Shown: in pieces, positions 40,251-49,720 of the stretch
Position numbering within the stretch: the stretch's first letter is position 1
How the letters are laid out: each line of letters starts with the position of its first letter
IMG/VR virus record: IMGVR_UViG_3300003320_000620
Coordinates: 1 to 64,000 of that record
Strand: one strand, 5' to 3'
DNA: 64,000 nt
Source of the DNA: a virus
Taxonomy: Duplodnaviria > Caudoviricetes
Translations under genes and position numbers: made by a program
Notes under the pieces: model-generated
Databases searched by the model: none
Seen by the model: only the letters and a program-made list of their open reading frames with translations
Told to the model about the DNA's origin: nothing

Positions 40251-42978
40251 ATGGCCATTGAACTTGACGAGCTGGCAGGCCCAGACGGTGGTGAAGAGAG
40301 CAGGAAGCTAGCCAAGCACTGGATAGAACAGTTGTCCATGATTAAGGACAATGGCGACAATAAACGTTGGGTTAAACGTGGTGAGGATATTGAAAAGCGT
40401 TATAGGGACGAACGCAGTCGCAGTGACGAGCAAGGTCAGCGCCGCTACAACGCCCTATGGTCCAATGTTCAGATCCTTAAGCCCGCCTTGTTTGGCAAGG
40501 TGCCAATCCCAATTTGTGAGCGGCGTTTCAAAGACAAAGACCCGGTTGGCCGGGGCGCTGCTCAAATGCTTGAGCGTGCTCTAAGGAATGAGATAGAAGT
40601 TTGTGGCTTTGGGGACTCACTAAGCAGGGCCGTTGATGACTATCTTCTTCCTGGTCGTGGTGTGGTTTGGGTACGCTATGAGCCTGAATTTTCAGAAAGT
40701 ATTTCACTTCCTGTTGAGCAGGAAACTGATATTGACGCCAAAATAGGCCAAAGAGCCGTTGGCAAAAATGATGACGATGAAGATCATGATGACGGTCCTG
40801 CATCTGAGGAAGGAAAGCAAGAAGATTACAATGAAGAGGGTGAGGCTCATGAGCCACATGAACAAGCTAATGAAGAAAAGCTTCAAAGTACAGGCGATAG
40901 AATTATCAGGGAATCTACCCCTGTAGATTACATTCCCTGGAAAGACTTCATAACCTTTCCGGCTCAAGCGCGAACATGGCCTGAAGTTACCGCTATTGGC
41001 AAGCGCGTTTACATGTCGCGCAGCCAAATGAAGAAACGGTTTGGAAAGAGGATCGGCAGTGCTATTCCCTTACAGCGTGACGACCGTGGTCCTAAAACCC
41101 AAAACGCAAGCGTTGTCGTATCATCAGACCAAGACAAAGGTATCATCTACGAAATATGGTCGATTGACCACATGGCGGTTTTTTGGGTGGCTGAGGGCTA
41201 TGATTATCTTTGTGATCGCAAAGACGACCCACTAGAATTGGAAAACTTTTGGCCAGTTCCACGACCACTCTTCGCTAATTCCACCAACAACACTTTGATA
41301 CCAGTCCCTGACTATATTCAGTATCAGGATCAGGCAATTCAGATTGATGAATTAACGCAACGCATTGCTATGCTGGCAAAGGCTTGTAAGGTTGCTGGTG
41401 TCTATAATGCCGCAGCCAAAGAAATTAAGCGCGTCTTTAACGAATCCTTAGAGAACGAACTCATACCAGTTGACGATTGGGCTGCTTTTGCTCAAGAGGG
41501 TCAAGGTGTGGCTGGAAATATCAGCCTAATGCCCATCAAGGATATTATGGGTGTTCTAAATGAGCTTATTACAGTTAGGAAGTTGGCTATTGAAGATATG
41601 GATCGTCTTACTGGTATCAACGATATTATGCGTGGCACTAGTGACGCGCGTGAAACTTTGGGTGGGGTGCGACTTAAACAAAATTCAACAGGCACTAGAA
41701 TTACTGCACGACAAAATGAAGTAGCTAGGTTTGCTAGAGACATAGTTCGTATTATGGCGGACATCATGTGTCGTCATTTCAGTCCTCAATCGCTAATTGA
41801 GGCCTCAGGTGCCCTTTACGAAGAAGGGCTTGGGCCTGAAGATATGCCTGATTTGACAGAATTGCAGCCGCCAGAACAGCAGCAAATGCCGCCACAGGGA
41901 CAGAAACCGCTTGGTCTTCTGTCATCACAGGCTCAGCCAAATGTTTCCTCAGCCCCAGCCGGTTCCTAATCAGGGGCCAATGCCCCCTCAAATGCCGCCG
42001 TCTGGCCCTCCACAGGGGATGCAGCCGCCAATGGGCGGGCAGCAGCCTCTAAATGGCCAGATTTTGCCACCTCAGCAGCAGATGCCGCCTGAGATTATGG
42101 CAAAAATGAAGGCCTTTGAGCGGATTGGCAACGCTATAGAACTACTTAGAGATGAAAAACTTCGCGGATTTCGCGTAGATATTGAAGTAGATTCTACAAT
42201 TTTCCCAGATGCGGCCCAAGAGAAGGCAGATAGGACAGAATTTATCACTGCTACAACCAAATTTCTTGAGACTGCAATGCAGATGGGCTCAGTAATGCCC
42301 GAATCTATCCCACTTTTGGGCAAAATGCTGCAATTTGGCGTTAGGGGCTACCGTGTAGGCCGTGATCTTGAGGCTTCAATTGAAGAATTCACTGATGAAG
42401 CCATAAGAGCAGCCAAAAAGAAGCAAGAAAACGCTGCAACTGCCCAGAATCCGGACATGATTAAGGCTCAGGCCGATGCAAAGAAGGCCGAAAGCCAATC
42501 TCAGGTTGCTCAGATCAAGGCACAGGCCGATATTGAGAAGATTAAGGCTGATCGTGAGAACCAGCAGCAAGAATCGGCTGCTGAAGTTGAACGACAACGC
42601 CTAGAAAATGAGGGTGAGAAGCAAAACGCCCAAATGGAATATATGTCTAAACAAATTGACATACAAATGAAAATGATGGAGAAGCAACTTCTTGAAATGA
42701 AGATGCAGATGGAAATGTTTAAGGCTCAGCATCAGACCAGACAGGGTCAACAGGAGATTGAGCAGCAAGACCGTGCTATGGCGCATGACGAACAAATGCA
42801 GCAGCAGCAAGCTGTGCAGCAGGAACGTCAATCTCAGCGTGACGCTCAAATGCAGGACCGACAGATGGCTATGCAGGAGCGTGATGCTATGTTCCAGGAG
42901 CGTCAGGCAAACCAAAAGATGCAGCAACAGGCTATGAAGCCCGTCCATTCCCCTAAACCAAACCCCATACAGCAGTAG
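40251..42978 (+). CDS. Portal protein, split by a +1 frameshift near 41940-41969
   Basis: ORF 40251..41969 is portal-like (GINDIMRG, RETLGG). The homology-type tail (ELLRDEKLRGFRVDIEVDSTI) continues in the +1 frame, 41911..42978. Confidence 0.85.
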
Positions 42979-44870: not shown

Positions 44871-47800
44871 ATGGCTTTTCCTAACCTATCAGAAATCGTT
44901 ACGACTACGCTGCGAAATCGCACAGGCGAGCTCGCAGATAATATGAGCCGTAACAACGCTGCGTTGCTTAGGCTTACTAAACGTGGTAGAAGTTGTACCT
45001 AAGGTTGCCACGTAACCCAGTGAATTCGGTGAAGGCTGAGATGCTAATACCGAGCCAAGATGCAAACGTATAGTGATTACAGTCACTAAAGGGTTGCATA
45101 AGGTGTAGAGACTAGGTAGCCCCGAAAGGGTGTTACCCACGAGCGCTGGGTGTTAGTATGGATGAAGTTCCTGGTATCTATGTTATAGAGTGTGTGCCAA
45201 CAGGTAGAGTTTATGTTGGATCTTCAGTAAAGCCACTGGCTAGAATCAAGTCTCACAAAAACTTGCTTAGCAAAGGTACCCATCGTAATGTTCATCTCCA
45301 AAGGGCTTGGGGTTTGCATGGCTCTAATTCCTTTACTTTCACGGTGGTACAACAGTGTGTTGCTGAAGAGCGCTTCAAAGTAGAACAGGAATGGATAACG
45401 AAGCTTCAAGCTACTGGTAAAAATGGGTTTAATATAGCGTTCCCTGTTGAACAAGTTCTGCCAAGTGAAAGGATGTCACAGGTAAGCCGTACTTCCTGGA
45501 AGGACAAGAAAACCAGAAAGAATAGGCATGCAGGCATACTTACAAAATGGCAAGACGATGCCTTTAGGGAAAGAAAGCTGCGCGATGGCCTAAAGGCTAG
45601 AGAAGCTTTAGCTAAAAAGCGGTTAGACCCAGAATGGCGTGCTCGGATTAGTGAAAAGACAAGTAAAACTATGAAGGAGCGTGCCAAGACTGAAGAAGGA
45701 TTAAAAGCTTTGCGTGTTGCAAGTAAGATTGCTCATATGCGCAGAGAAAATGATCCTGAATTCAAAGCAAAATGTGAAGCAGGCTTGAAGTATTCGAGTA
45801 CTAACAAAGAGATAGTCCGACCAGCAGCAAATAAAGAAGCTGCTGAAGTGATGGATAAAGAGCCGTCACGGTAACAACTAAGAACCTAAAGACGTTCTCA
45901 GGTGGGCGTACGATTGTTCAAGAGCTTGTAATGGGCTCATAGTATAGTAAGAGCTTACGGCTTCAGGATACTATGATATGCTGGTGAATTCGGAGAAAAC
46001 CCAATGCCCGGCCGAAAGGTGCGGAAGGGCAACCCCGAGCCAAGCAGGCAGTTTTATGCTGCCGGGCGTGTGTAACGATCATGAACCAGCCCCGGAAGGG
46101 AAGATATGATCTGTTCTGCATGGGAACATGCAGAGGCTGACAGAAATGATCAGCCCGGCTGTAAGGACAGTCAGTAACAACTAGAAATTATGCGAACAAT
46201 CAAACCTTCCAATGGTATTCAGGATATCAATCCTTGAATATCAGCCCGTCGCAGGTCTTCTCTGCGGCTGAGTACCCGATCCGTCAAGCAGCGGTGGCTG
46301 TCTCTATCTCTGGCCTAGAGGAACTCCAGAACAGTGGAGAGGAAGCCATAATCGACTTGCTGGAGAGTCGGATAATGAATGCGGAAGACACCTTCGATTT
46401 GAGGGCCGCTGCGTAGTTAAAAGGACGCAGATGGAATGCTGGTGAATTCGGTGGAAACCCAATGCCCGGTCTAGAGTTGATGCGGAAGGGTAATACCGAG
46501 CCAAGCAAGGAACTTACAAGTTCCTGGGCGTGTGTAACGAGCATGGACCAGCCCCGGAAGGGAAGATGTGCTCTGATCTGCATGGGAACATGCAGAGGTT
46601 GGCAGAAATGACCAACCCCTTAAGTTGAAACTTAAGAGTAACAAATTGTCATGAACGGTCTTTCGCAAGGGGTGTACGGCGACGGTACTGTGGCCAACTC
46701 AGTCGGCGGCCTCCAGTTGCTTGTTTCCAGCTCCCCGACCTCAGGTGTTGTTGGCGGCATTGACCGCTCGCAGTGGTCTTTCTGGCAGAACCAATCTTGG
46801 TCAGCCAGCACGAACGGCAGCACTACCCTCAGCTCGGCTACCATCATCCAAATGATGGATGCTCTGTGGGTTCAGCTGATCCGCGGCCGTGATTCGCCTG
46901 ATCTGATCATCGCAGACAACGTCTGCTACCGCTACTACCTGAATGCCCTCCAGGCCATTCAGCGCGTTACCCAGACTTCTTCGGCTCCTGATATGGCTGA
47001 GGCTGGCTTCCAGAGCCTCAAGTATATTACGGCCGATGTGGTGCTGGATGGTGGCTTCCAGGGATTCAGCACTGATCCGCTGCCTTCCCAGGTTTCTACT
47101 AGCTCGTCTGCTGTTGGCGGTGCGCCAAGTTCGACGATGTATTTCCTTAACGAGTCGGTGACGATTCACTAACTCATGGGGCTGTTAATCAGTAAGCGGA
47201 GGGTATGATCGTTTCTTGAGAGCTTTACACTTCAAATAAAGCTCTTCTCGATAAGCAAGGATTAAATCTCGGTCCTTGCGGTTGCTACCATCACCTCGAC
47301 CTGGAAAGTTATAGGGGTGTTGGTCAATGTGGTCACGAAGGGCTAGAACTAAATCTACCTCTTCACGTTTTACGATCACATAGGGTTGTATGCGTCGAAG
47401 GAAAGGGGCAACGCCTTGGTTGTGAATGCCCCAACAAAACTGGATACGATTCTTAGGGTTTCGCAAGTCATGTCGGTTTTGGTTCAAATGACCGCCAAAT
47501 TCATCATAAAGCATCTTTATGATGGGATAGTGTGTCATGCCAATTCCAACAGCGGGGTAATAGCCCACATGGCCTTTGCGAACCTTTTTGAAGATTCGAG
47601 CAAAGCCTTCGCCGTCAAACAAGCCAGCAACGTAACGATCATCCAAGACTCAACTCCGTCAGGGGTTAACAGAATGGCAGCGAATTCGGAGAAAACCCGA
47701 TGCCCGGCTCTAAATGAGTGCGGAAGGGCGACCCCGAGCCAAGCAAGCAGAGACAAACTGCTGGGCGTGTGTAACGAACATGTGCTGTCCTCGGAAGAGA

Positions 47801-48555
47801 AGATATGTTCTGAACTCTACAGGAATGTAGAGAAGTTGGCAGAAATGACCAACTCGGCTAATGTACTTATCACTTATAAGTATGTCAAGTCGGTAACAGA
47901 TTGCAATACGAAGTACATCCACTGGCGCCCTCATAGCCGCCGCAACATGGTCCCTCTTGATCCAGACCGCTTCTCGGTTAATAGTTGGCCGCATGCAAAG
48001 GCGACTTTGCATTGAAAATTGGGTGAATTGCTGGAACACCCCACTGGGGCAATCAGCAGCCAAGCTGCTTAGGAATAAGCAGAAGGTTCAACGACTAGGT
48101 AGAGTAATCCAGACCGGACGAAATACCCACGAGCGCCCAACACCTCTAGTAGGTGAAGATATAGTCTGAACTGTGCAGCAATGTGCAGAAGTGGCAAATA
48201 AAGAGTTGTCACGGTAACAAAAATGCAACCAAGACGCGATGGTAAGATTGATAGGATGGGCTGGGAATATGACCCTGAGCAATGCGTTAACTGAGAAGCG
48301 CCCTCAATATCTAAATTGAGGAAAACTGGGTGAAACGGAGAAAACCCTTATGGGGCAACTCCGTAGGAAGCTGGCAAGGGCATGGTTTGCCAGAACCTCT
48401 AGAGACTAGGTCCTGAGTCCCAACAATAATGGACCCACGAGCGCCCGGCACCGAAAGGTGATGAAATAGTCCGATCTGTGTAGCAATACGCAGAAGTGCA
48501 GGATAAAGAGCTTGCACGGTAACAGAATGTTCTTCAGGGGATCTTAGTGTCGTAA
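44871..48555 (+). CDS. Major capsid protein, 7 exons, 343 aa after splicing
   Basis: Exons: 44871-44987, 45883-45926, 46185-46393, 46649-47147, 47904-47978, 48226-48287, 48530-48555 (1032 nt, one open frame). Junctions read TKRG|NLKTFSGGRTIVQEL|NYANN...AEDTF|MNGLSQG...MYFL|NTKYIHW...DRFSV|NQDAMVRLIGWAGNMTLSNAF|LQGILVS. AAAGGAG SD upstream. Confidence 0.9.
44988..45882 (+). mobile_element. Group I intron 1 (895 nt) with GIY-YIG ORF
   Basis: Exon ends in U and intron ends in G. IGS AGGTT|GCCACG pairs with both exons (U.G at the splice site). Core motifs GAATTCGGTGAA, CCGAGCCAAG, AGAGACTAG and GATAGTCC. Confidence 0.9.
45158..45874 (+). CDS. Intron-encoded GIY-YIG homing endonuclease
   Basis: GIYVIECVPTGRVYVGSS...RIKSH...EQEWI...FN; its 3' end overlaps the intron core. 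Confidence 0.9.
   Translation: MDEVPGIYVIECVPTGRVYVGSSVKPLARIKSHKNLLSKGTHRNVHLQRAWGLHGSNSFTFTVVQQCVAEERFKVEQEWITKLQATGKNGFNIAFPVEQVLPSERMSQVSRTSWKDKKTRKNRHAGILTKWQDDAFRERKLRDGLKAREALAKKRLDPEWRARISEKTSKTMKERAKTEEGLKALRVASKIAHMRRENDPEFKAKCEAGLKYSSTNKEIVRPAANKEAAEVMDKEPSR
45927..46184 (+). mobile_element. Group I intron 2 (258 nt, no ORF)
   Basis: U|...G| boundaries, P1 GAGCU/GGCUC, core GGTGAATTCGG, CCGAGCCAAG, TGTAACGA, GAAGATATG. Confidence 0.85.
46394..46648 (+). mobile_element. Group I intron 3 (255 nt, no ORF)
   Basis: U|...G| boundaries, IGS TGA|GGG; core nearly identical to intron 2. Confidence 0.85.
47148..47903 (+). mobile_element. Group I intron 4 (756 nt) with antisense LAGLIDADG ORF
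   Basis: U|...G| boundaries; the core at about 47670-47903 is similar to introns 2 and 3. Confidence 0.85.
47185..47646 (-). CDS. Single-motif LAGLIDADG homing endonuclease, antisense within intron 4
   Basis: YVAGLFDGEGF motif, VKREEVDLVL and LKKR C-terminus typical of the family; GGAG SD on the minus strand. Confidence 0.9.
   Translation of the reverse strand: MDDRYVAGLFDGEGFARIFKKVRKGHVGYYPAVGIGMTHYPIIKMLYDEFGGHLNQNRHDLRNPKNRIQFCWGIHNQGVAPFLRRIQPYVIVKREEVDLVLALRDHIDQHPYNFPGRGDGSNRKDRDLILAYREELYLKCKALKKRSYPPLTD
47979..48225 (+). mobile_element. Group I intron 5 (247 nt, no ORF)
   Basis: IGS TTG|GCCG pairs with exon CGGU and with 3' exon CAA; AACGACTAG and GAAGATATAGTC. Confidence 0.9.
48288..48529 (+). 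mobile_element. Group I intron 6 (242 nt, no ORF)
   Basis: IGS GAA|GCGC pairs with exon GCGU and with 3' exon TTC; AGAGACTAG and GAAATAGTCC. Confidence 0.9.
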
Positions 48556-48601: not shown

Positions 48602-49720
48602 TTGGGCCTAATCACTAACGGAGTAAAACTTACAATGGCTGGATCAGGCATTTATGCCATAGTTTGCATACCAACAAACCAGCGCTATGTTGGATATGCT
48701 GTAAATTGGGAGAAACGAACGAAAAGTCACTTTTCAAAACTTGAGCGCGGTGTTCATAAAAACAAGAAACTTCAAGATGCTTGGTTTTTACATGGTGAAA
48801 ATAATTTCAAGTTTGAGTTGTTGGAATTGTGCCCAATAAAGGATTTGGTGCATAGAGAGTATTGGTGGATTAAACATTTCAACTCCGTTGAAAATGGTTT
48901 CAATAACTTACGATCTGGTTGCTTTTCTAATACTTCGCATGGAATGTCTGGCACGCCAACATTCAAATCTTGGGAATCAATGCTTCAGCGCTGCAATAAT
49001 CCAAACTCACCAGATTATCCAAAATGGGGTGGTTGTGGTATTAAGGTTCATGAAAGCTGGTTTGAGTTTTCTAAATTTTATGCTGATATGGGTGAGAGAC
49101 CGCCAGGAACCTCAATAGATAGGCATCCAAACAAGTTTGGAAATTATGAACCTGGGAATTGCCGTTGGGCAACTGGCTCAGAACAACAGAAAAACAAAAG
49201 CAACACATTGTTTATAACGCATAATGGAATATGCAAACCCCTTGTTGAATGGGCTGACGAAAAGGGAATGCCTCGAGACCTTTTACGTAGGCGTTATCAT
49301 GCAGGAATGCTTGGTGATGAACTTTTCGCTCCATCCTACAGCCGTTATAAAGGTGACGTTAACGGCGTTAAGAGAAAGAGGGTTGAGACTAGGCATAACT
49401 TGCATAAATTTGAATATAAAGGAAAAATGCGTTCAATTACAGAAATAGCGGAGCTAGCAGGGATTAAGCGCTCGAGGTTGAAACAACGCTTGGTTAGAGA
49501 CAAAATGAGCCTCGAGGTAGCGTTAAGTGAAAATGCTTTGCCTAGGGGGAAAGCCGGGCCTAGAAATGGTAGGGTTATGTTAACTGCCTTTGGCAAGACA
49601 CAATCAATAAGTCGATGGGCTGAACAATACCACATGGCACTTTCAACCTTAAGGAATAGAATTTTTAGATCTGGCATGAAACTAGAGGATGCCTTAACAC
49701 TGAACAAGTCCACATCGTGA
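48602..49720 (+). CDS. Free-standing homing-endonuclease-like protein with GIY-YIG and HNH-type domains
   Basis: GIYAIVCIPTNQRYVG (GIY-YIG), then SWESMLQRC...SIDRHPNKFGNYEPGNCRWAT (HNH-like), then repeated small DNA-binding units. Confidence 0.85.
   Translation: MGLITNGVKLTMAGSGIYAIVCIPTNQRYVGYAVNWEKRTKSHFSKLERGVHKNKKLQDAWFLHGENNFKFELLELCPIKDLVHREYWWIKHFNSVENGFNNLRSGCFSNTSHGMSGTPTFKSWESMLQRCNNPNSPDYPKWGGCGIKVHESWFEFSKFYADMGERPPGTSIDRHPNKFGNYEPGNCRWATGSEQQKNKSNTLFITHNGICKPLVEWADEKGMPRDLLRRRYHAGMLGDELFAPSYSRYKGDVNGVKRKRVETRHNLHKFEYKGKMRSITEIAELAGIKRSRLKQRLVRDKMSLEVALSENALPRGKAGPRNGRVMLTAFGKTQSISRWAEQYHMALSTLRNRIFRSGMKLEDALTLNKSTS

Follow-up and report, generated by a model that had tools for sequence, protein, structure and literature searches.

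The 64,000-nucleotide stretch of DNA analysed here (the window) is the first 64 kb of the IMG/VR record IMGVR_UViG_3300003320_000620, the 88,094-bp genome of an uncultivated virus of the Caudoviricetes with a CheckV completeness of 97%. At positions 44871 to 48555 lies its major capsid protein (MCP) gene, recognised by homology, by the open reading frame (ORF) obtained when its pieces are joined, and by spliced alignment. Seven exons are separated by six inserts, which a preliminary description made from the letters alone had taken to be group I introns. The features are listed in order below, with nucleotide (nt) positions in the coding sequence (CDS) for the exons and the supporting evidence for the introns. 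All exons were obtained both by reading of the junctions and with a spliced aligner.

44871..48555, plus strand, major capsid protein gene, 7 exons and 6 introns
44871..44987, plus strand, exon 1, CDS nt 1-117
44988..45882, plus strand, intron 1, 895 nt, family A (partial Rfam match, nhmmer, P1/P10, homologue in the related locus L028)
45883..45926, plus strand, exon 2, CDS nt 118-161
45927..46184, plus strand, intron 2, 258 nt, family B, without ORF (Rfam 32.1 bits, covariation)
46185..46393, plus strand, exon 3, CDS nt 162-370
46394..46648, plus strand, intron 3, 255 nt, family B, without ORF (Rfam 19.4 bits, covariation)
46649..47147, plus strand, exon 4, CDS nt 371-869
47148..47903, plus strand, intron 4, 756 nt, family B (Rfam 20.2 bits, core in the family B alignment)
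47904..47978, plus strand, exon 5, CDS nt 870-944
47979..48225, plus strand, intron 5, 247 nt, family A, without ORF (Rfam 96.2 bits, covariation)
48226..48287, plus strand, exon 6, CDS nt 945-1006
48288..48529, plus strand, intron 6, 242 nt, family A, without ORF (Rfam 48.5 bits, covariation)
48530..48555, plus strand, exon 7, CDS nt 1007-1032 including the stop codon

The capsid gene has a ribosome-binding site (aaggag) 6 nt 5' of its ATG and ends with the TAA at 48553-48555. Joined at boundaries where a U ends the exon and a G ends the intron, the seven exons sum to 1032 nt, encoding 343 amino acids (aa) followed by TAA, and the introns (895, 258, 255, 756, 247 and 242 nt) occupy 72.0% of the locus; both values, recomputed, agree with the 1032 nt and about 72% given in the preliminary description. 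The junctions were first read by hand from the exon-final U, the intron-final G, and the P1 and P10 pairings with the internal guide sequence (IGS). A spliced aligner that used the intronless CDS L007:4629-5660 as reference, and whose only rules were an intron-final G and a preferred exon-final T, gave exactly the same seven exons independently of the hand reading. The 5' splice site of intron 1 was placed after 44987 (..KRG/NLK..), not after the chance in-frame 'aga' at 44988-44990. Ends of exon 1 at 44990 or 44993 and of exon 2 at 45929 were rejected, as they give a protein longer than all of the 343-aa homologues and a poorer P1.

The intronless capsid proteins of cultured phages (Bradyrhizobium phage ppBjS10J-1, Myxococcus phage Mx8 and Stenotrophomonas phage BUCT555) align by tblastn to seven separate stretches of the locus with changes of frame between them, giving matches across all exons. 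Exon 4 matches the major head protein family PHROG 9953 (3.4e-39), and a scan of IMG/VR with this exon returned 53 related loci, referred to here by L numbers. The joined protein aligns without gaps from residue 1 to 343 with uninterrupted 343-codon ORFs in about 25 of the related contigs (83-89% identity), which is the end-to-end agreement with intronless homologues that the preliminary description had looked for. Comparison of the exons with those of the relatives gave a pN of 0.05-0.2 and a saturated pS of 0.6-1.0, indicating from sequence divergence that the capsid exons are under purifying selection. No second capsid gene was found in the 88-kb genome.

To the Rfam group I intron model RF00028, all six inserts gave plus-strand matches in a search of 6.5 kb, with E-values from 1.5e-24 to 0.15:

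47969-48188, plus strand, intron 5, 96.2 bits (E 1.5e-24)
48283-48493, plus strand, intron 6, 48.5 bits
45906-46133, plus strand, intron 2, 32.1 bits
47576-47832, plus strand, intron 4, 20.2 bits
45014-45151, plus strand, intron 1, 19.8 bits (5' half only)
46349-46595, plus strand, intron 3, 19.4 bits

The covariance-model check suggested earlier thus recognises every insert, with intron 5 alone exceeding the gathering score of 50. Since the other five matches are below this threshold, more evidence was needed, and it was supplied by covariation in the homologous introns of the relatives. Introns were detected with nhmmer profiles plus Rfam, and by sequence they form two families, A (introns 1, 5 and 6) and B (introns 2, 3 and 4). 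The nhmmer profiles of the two families matched nothing in the intronless loci or in 5-kb flanks, and nothing elsewhere in the 88-kb genome outside the capsid gene; all matches lie within the interrupted capsid genes of the relatives.

Covariation was analysed in alignments of 21 family A and 14 family B introns, 35 in all, from the window and its relatives. For family A, a structure from P2 to P9.1 with the P7 pseudoknot has 87.9% of its cells paired, against 37-40% when it is slid along the alignment, and 47 of its 60 pairs show double-sided changes. RNAalifold on family B recovered P3, P4, P5, P6, P6a, P8, P9 and P9.1; together with P7 this structure has 96.1% of its cells paired (32-40% when slid), and compensatory changes occur in 29 of 48 pairs. 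P7 itself is 100% paired in family B, with variant central pairs in introns 2 and 4 of the window. In neither family did any of 500 shuffles attain the observed pairing or covariation score. In the relatives, Rfam independently detects group I introns, six of them in L014 and five in L025. In its core, intron 5 of the window shares 70-81% identity with introns annotated in psbA genes of cyanophages and polymerase genes of Bacillus phages.

The splice-site signals follow the same pattern. All six introns of the window end in G and all six sites have U at -1; likewise, across about 50 introns from the window and its relatives, each inferred 5' exon ends in U and each intron in G. The lengths of P1 and P10 as scored by script are 7 and 5 bp for intron 1, 5 and 0 for intron 2, 3 and 3 for intron 3, 3 and 2 or 4 and 0 for intron 4, 4 and 4 for intron 5, and 4 and 5 for intron 6. 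These values bear out the preliminary description, in which the IGS was recognisable in most introns and less clear in intron 4, and they add intron 3 to the introns with a short P1. Across 50 introns, P1 and P10 together average 7.4 bp with the cognate flanks and 5.1 bp with swapped flanks. An in-frame stop codon lies 13-35 nt inside every one of the six introns; such stops are known from other phage introns, where they prevent ribosomes from entering the core (PMC3984707). On the combined sequence and covariation evidence, the six inserts are confirmed as genuine group I introns. Moreover, the intact capsid gene, the complete cores and the placement of the stops argue that all six would splice; the same prediction is drawn from pN far below pS and from the lack of a second capsid gene.

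A GTAACA-like motif is also located 4-8 nt before the terminal G of each intron (45871-45876, 46174-46179, 46639-46644, 47893-47898, 48215-48220 and 48519-48524), and is kept in both families and in nearly all introns of the relatives.

Two of the six introns carry an ORF. In intron 1, P1 pairs acgtggt with Gccacgt (U.G at 44987/45007) and P10 pairs aacct with aggtt, and P8 (about 45150-45157 with 45800-45807) loops out the ORF, the last 70 nt of which double as P7', P9 and P9.1. An ORF-less form of the same intron occupies the identical site in L028, with 90% identity over 200 nt. In intron 4, the IGS is weak (GGGG at 47178-47181), the core extends from about 47660 to 47903, and P2 (ctgttaa at 47182-47188 with ttaacag at 47667-47673) encloses an ORF on the opposite strand. 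Among the ORF-less introns, intron 2 is 84% identical to intron 3, and the site of intron 3 is also occupied in L026 by an intron that is 86% identical. Intron 5 has the P1 cggt with Gccg and the P10 caac with gttg; intron 6 has the P1 gcgt with Gcgc and the P10 ttctt with gagaa, and its site is occupied in five relatives.

Three putative homing endonuclease genes lie in or directly beside the capsid gene:

45158..45874, plus strand, GIY-YIG homing endonuclease, 238 aa, in the P8 loop of intron 1 (PF01541 7.6e-10; PHROG 314 2.3e-20)
47185..47646, minus strand, LAGLIDADG homing endonuclease with a single motif, 153 aa, in the P2 loop of intron 4 (homologues, AlphaFold2 (AF2), Foldseek)
48602..49720, plus strand, free-standing GIY-YIG homing endonuclease, 372 aa (PF01541 2.4e-10; PHROG 3377 4.8e-55)

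The two GIY-YIG proteins have the motifs GIYVIE..YVG and GIYAIV..YVG, with PF01541 above the cut-off for both. The free-standing gene starts 46 nt past the capsid stop codon, and neither Rfam nor nhmmer gave an intron match around it. Genes of the GIY-YIG type are found directly 3' of the capsid stop in many relatives (among them L019, L024, L033, L034, L036 and L037), intronless ones included.

The antisense gene in intron 4 has a TTG start codon with GGAG 7 nt upstream. It has 40 homologues (44-86% identity) with an invariant AG.FDGEG (A7, G8, F10, D11, G12, E13 and G14). AF2 gave a model with a pLDDT of 92.1 from the 40-sequence alignment and 37.8 from the single sequence; the top Foldseek matches of the model were I-MsoI, I-CvuI and I-CreI (TM 0.68-0.74, probability 1.0), and the Atlas neighbours of the ORF are LAGLIDADG_1. 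Pfam gave no match at E-values up to 10, and a sequence search of the PDB returned nothing relevant. The PHROG label of this ORF, "HNH endonuclease", is contradicted by the predicted LAGLIDADG fold, from which the protein is predicted to be an enzyme of the homodimeric LAGLIDADG type. A homologue that is 32% identical is present in L021 in sense orientation, in an intron located 3 nt away.

Further antisense ORFs of 90-276 aa occur in introns of the relatives (L028:3673-4563, L026:3580-4531 and L014:3946-4273), and antisense coding within these introns may be recurrent. A scan of the region for sigma-70-like promoters was at chance level (8 found, 6.8 expected); its best match, TTGACA-17-TACATT (10/12) at 47888-47860 on the minus strand, is about 215 nt upstream of the antisense gene.

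The introns of the capsid gene differ widely among the relatives. The spliced aligner was applied to eight interrupted relatives and gave clean 343-aa ORFs, in L025 only if a 51-nt insert was removed. L041, in which indels defeat the gapless aligner, and L023, L040 and L044, which were not mapped to the base, were left out of this mapping.

L014 (2774-6657): 9 introns, ten exons, clean 343-aa ORF
L025 (3493-6619): 9 introns and a 51-nt remnant
L018: 6 introns
L021: 5 introns
L027: 5 introns
L020: 4 introns
L028: 4 introns
L026: 2 introns

The number thus runs from 0 to 9-10, with 25 distinct sites when the window is included. All 25 fall within codons 1-127 or 288-336, where the protein is most conserved, and none in codons 128-288. 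Sites 161 and 944 (introns 2 and 5 of the window) were seen occupied in the window genome alone, and site 1006 is common to six genomes. Inserts at the same site in contigs from other samples are 74-90% identical. The two families also differ in the sequence that precedes them: family A follows a purine and U (R-U) at 13 of 13 sites, and family B a pyrimidine and U (Y-U) at 10 of 10, the latter of which fits the conserved G-G-G guide of family B. Many introns of L025 are streamlined to 179-186 nt and do not have the P7.1 and P9.1 hairpins.

The 51-nt insert of L025 (L025:3571-3621) is at a place where L014, L018 and L027 have a family A intron. It starts with TAA, forms an 8-bp P1 (acatgtct with GGACATGT) and ends in G, and the catalytic core is absent. 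It could be a decayed intron, a sign of a dead gene, or a trans-spliced element.

Taken together, these observations are best explained if the single capsid gene is occupied by six selfish mobile group I introns, tolerated because they splice themselves from the late transcript, a reading to which we give a probability of roughly 0.85. It builds on what was observed: where exons and introns meet, how the ribozymes fold, what the endonucleases are, the presence/absence polymorphism, and exons kept under purifying selection. In particular, since relatives with 83-89% identity are intronless and others carry different sets, the introns are dispensable and vary as selfish elements do; presence/absence polymorphism, forms of one intron with and without an endonuclease gene, streamlined 180-nt versions and the decayed remnant point the same way.

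The scheme that follows is a prediction from sequence as regards splicing in vivo, the activity and targets of the endonucleases, and the route of spread. The capsid gene would be transcribed as one 3.7-kb precursor, and a ribosome entering an unspliced intron would halt at the in-frame stop near its 5' end. Each ribozyme would fold into a P3-P9 core with the guanosine pocket in P7, its internal guide pairing with the end of the exon (U.G), and two transesterifications would yield the ligated 1032-nt mRNA and from it the normal 343-aa capsid protein. At the DNA level, spread was probably driven by the GIY-YIG enzyme of intron 1, the antisense LAGLIDADG enzyme of intron 4 and the free-standing GIY-YIG enzyme downstream, which would cut the intron-poor alleles of co-infecting relatives. 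The ORF-less introns may have been carried along by co-conversion, or may have reached new sites by ectopic insertion directed by their guide sequences.

Several observations weigh against this reading. Four of the six introns lack an endonuclease gene of their own. P1 is just 3-4 bp in introns 3 and 4 and the P10 of intron 4 is unconvincing; one of these two introns could splice poorly or need a helper. The contig is derived from a metagenome, so that the viability of the phage is unproven. In addition, synonymous sites are saturated between the window genome and every sampled relative, and therefore no recent homing or co-conversion is visible; the introns may be old residents. In this sampling, homogenisation of the intron-rich ends of the gene by co-conversion was likewise unsupported, synonymous sites there being as saturated as those in the middle.

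As to how the introns spread, we consider it possible, though clearly short of probable, that the two ribozyme families reached at least 25 sites in the 1-kb capsid gene of this soil-type phage clade, with nine or ten in one genome at most, chiefly through ectopic insertion directed by the guide sequence (by reverse splicing or an equivalent route) and not by endonuclease homing. This is suggested by the R-U/Y-U rule, by the lack of an endonuclease in most introns, and by intron 2, which is an 84% identical copy of intron 3 and occupies a site seen in no other genome. Were this so, group I introns would be packed here more densely than in any viral or bacterial protein gene described so far, and the gene would provide comparative evidence, which is rare, that RNA-guided transposition of introns takes place outside rDNA.

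A rival explanation that overlaps with the selfish-intron reading adds a net benefit to the phage: the endonucleases would cut the capsid gene of co-infecting relatives while the introns shield the phage's own sites, so that the intron-rich allele wins mixed infections by interference competition or marker exclusion. Such a benefit is possible, and it would fit with three endonuclease genes in or beside the most conserved gene of the region (among relatives, the MCP shows 75-89% identity, the portal 60-72% and the scaffold protein 30-47%), with every intron site falling within the most conserved segments, and with the free-standing homologues 3' of the capsid gene in many relatives, including those lacking introns. 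However, cleavage by these endonucleases is a prediction, an endonuclease is lacking from most introns, and tracts of recent conversion were not seen, so that we regard the net benefit as doubtful.

The preliminary description had instead proposed a gate on virion assembly, in which capsid output is deliberately tied to six splicing events and GTP, Mg, temperature or folding kinetics time or throttle it. With a single capsid gene, all capsid protein does depend on six splicing events, and the position of the gene in a long late unit with no terminator-like sites in 5.6 kb is compatible with a gate, if not specific to it. The proposal is hard to square, however, with intronless relatives of 83-89% identity and with others in which both the set of introns and their sites differ. 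The families to which the introns belong are ordinary mobile ones that include homing endonucleases, and the analysis found neither a sensor element nor a conserved set of introns. A deliberate gate is therefore unsupported and not needed, and we consider it very improbable.

An equally slight chance is assigned to decay, whereby at least one intron (intron 4 or 3 being the likeliest) no longer splices and a defective or dead-end genome makes no capsid protein. The short P1 and missing P10 of intron 4 could be read in this way, and the coreless remnant in L025 indicates that degeneration does occur in the clade, but all six cores are complete with their covarying helices kept, and the exons are intact and under purifying selection in a genome of 97% completeness. 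Finally, although the record is an uncultivated viral genome, chimeric joins in the metagenome assembly can practically be dismissed, as base-exact boundaries restore the frame six times and independent contigs from other samples carry like inserts, some at shared sites, with 74-90% identity.

The occupation of the capsid gene by six introns can be compared with several known systems. Group I introns with homing endonucleases of the GIY-YIG or HNH type (I-TevI, I-TevII and I-TevIII) are found in the td, nrdB and nrdD genes of phage T4. As in T4, an endonuclease ORF is looped out from a peripheral helix and an in-frame stop lies near the 5' splice site, and the homing of T4 introns into intronless alleles of co-infecting relatives parallels what is predicted here. 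The T4 introns, however, are single, reside in genes of nucleotide metabolism and have sense ORFs, whereas the six introns here interrupt a late structural gene and one of their ORFs is antisense. The antisense product resembles the homodimeric enzymes I-CreI, I-MsoI and I-CvuI in its predicted fold (TM 0.74) and its single LAGLIDADG-type motif (AGLFDGEG); it differs from them in its low identity (14-18%), the lack of a Pfam match, and its location on the strand opposite its intron.

The statement in the preliminary description that structural genes with multiple introns are uncommon is dated. In crAss-like phages of the Zeta group, the MCP gene (cMAG OLRF01000054) is split into five fragments by inserts of the group I intron type (Yutin et al. 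2021, PMC7886860), and Jug phages have a mean of 18.5 group I introns per genome, terL included (PMC12880540). The crAss-like case is similar in that a capsid gene is repeatedly interrupted by self-splicing intron-type inserts with endonuclease domains, and both cases are known from metagenomes only. The phage lineage and habitat differ, and there are four inserts compared to six here and nine to ten in the relatives. In the Zeta genome introns occur across many genes, whereas in the 88-kb genome studied here the capsid gene is the only one that has them; and those introns were inferred mainly from protein domains, whereas the RNA cores are demonstrated here by covariation.

Several compact group I introns within one protein gene are also found in orf142 of Staphylococcus phage Twort, for which three introns are given by Landthaler and Shub (1999) as cited in PMC6669764. 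As read from the alignment, an extra hairpin separates P7 from P3' in family A, a trait typical of phage introns of the IA type and a point of likeness to the Twort ribozyme. Going by that citation, the three Twort introns are spliced experimentally, while the splicing of the six here is predicted. Outside phages, fungal mitochondrial cox1 and nuclear rDNA are reservoirs of group I introns for which spread by reverse splicing has been proposed (PMC1299323). There too, one highly conserved gene gathers many related introns at many sites, and related introns at different sites suggest ectopic transposition. Those are organellar and nuclear genes of eukaryotes, whereas this is a 1-kb phage gene, and no reverse transcriptase was identified. 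The parts are standard group I introns and homing endonucleases, and it is the intron density that is unusually high; a search of the literature found no description of this clade, nor of a phage gene that bears six to ten introns.

For annotation, gene callers will overlook the capsid gene, or break it into fragments, in this phage and in many of its relatives, and capsid-based classification of the clade and studies of host defence consequently need intron-aware annotation. The clade is a natural series in which one short essential gene carries anything from 0 to 9-10 introns; it spans forms of one intron with and without an endonuclease, versions streamlined to 180 nt, an endonuclease gene in antisense orientation and the remnant of 51 nt. 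Such a series should be useful for distinguishing homing from reverse splicing as the route of group I introns to new sites, for determining how many ribozymes one bacterial mRNA can bear while it is translated, and for deciding whether intron-borne nucleases determine the outcome of mixed phage infections.

Two minor observations concern the surroundings of the capsid gene. Terminator-like hairpins between 44400 and 50000 number 0 in 5.6 kb, with 5.8 expected from shuffles, which fits one long late transcript. Upstream, the portal gene (40251-42978) is in two overlapping frames (40251-41969 and 41911-42978) that match the two halves of PHROG 12082. No intron signal was found at this break, which could be a frameshift, an assembly error or recoding; the portal gene of L007 is a single ORF of 827 aa, and the break in the window falls in a stretch rich in Q and P.

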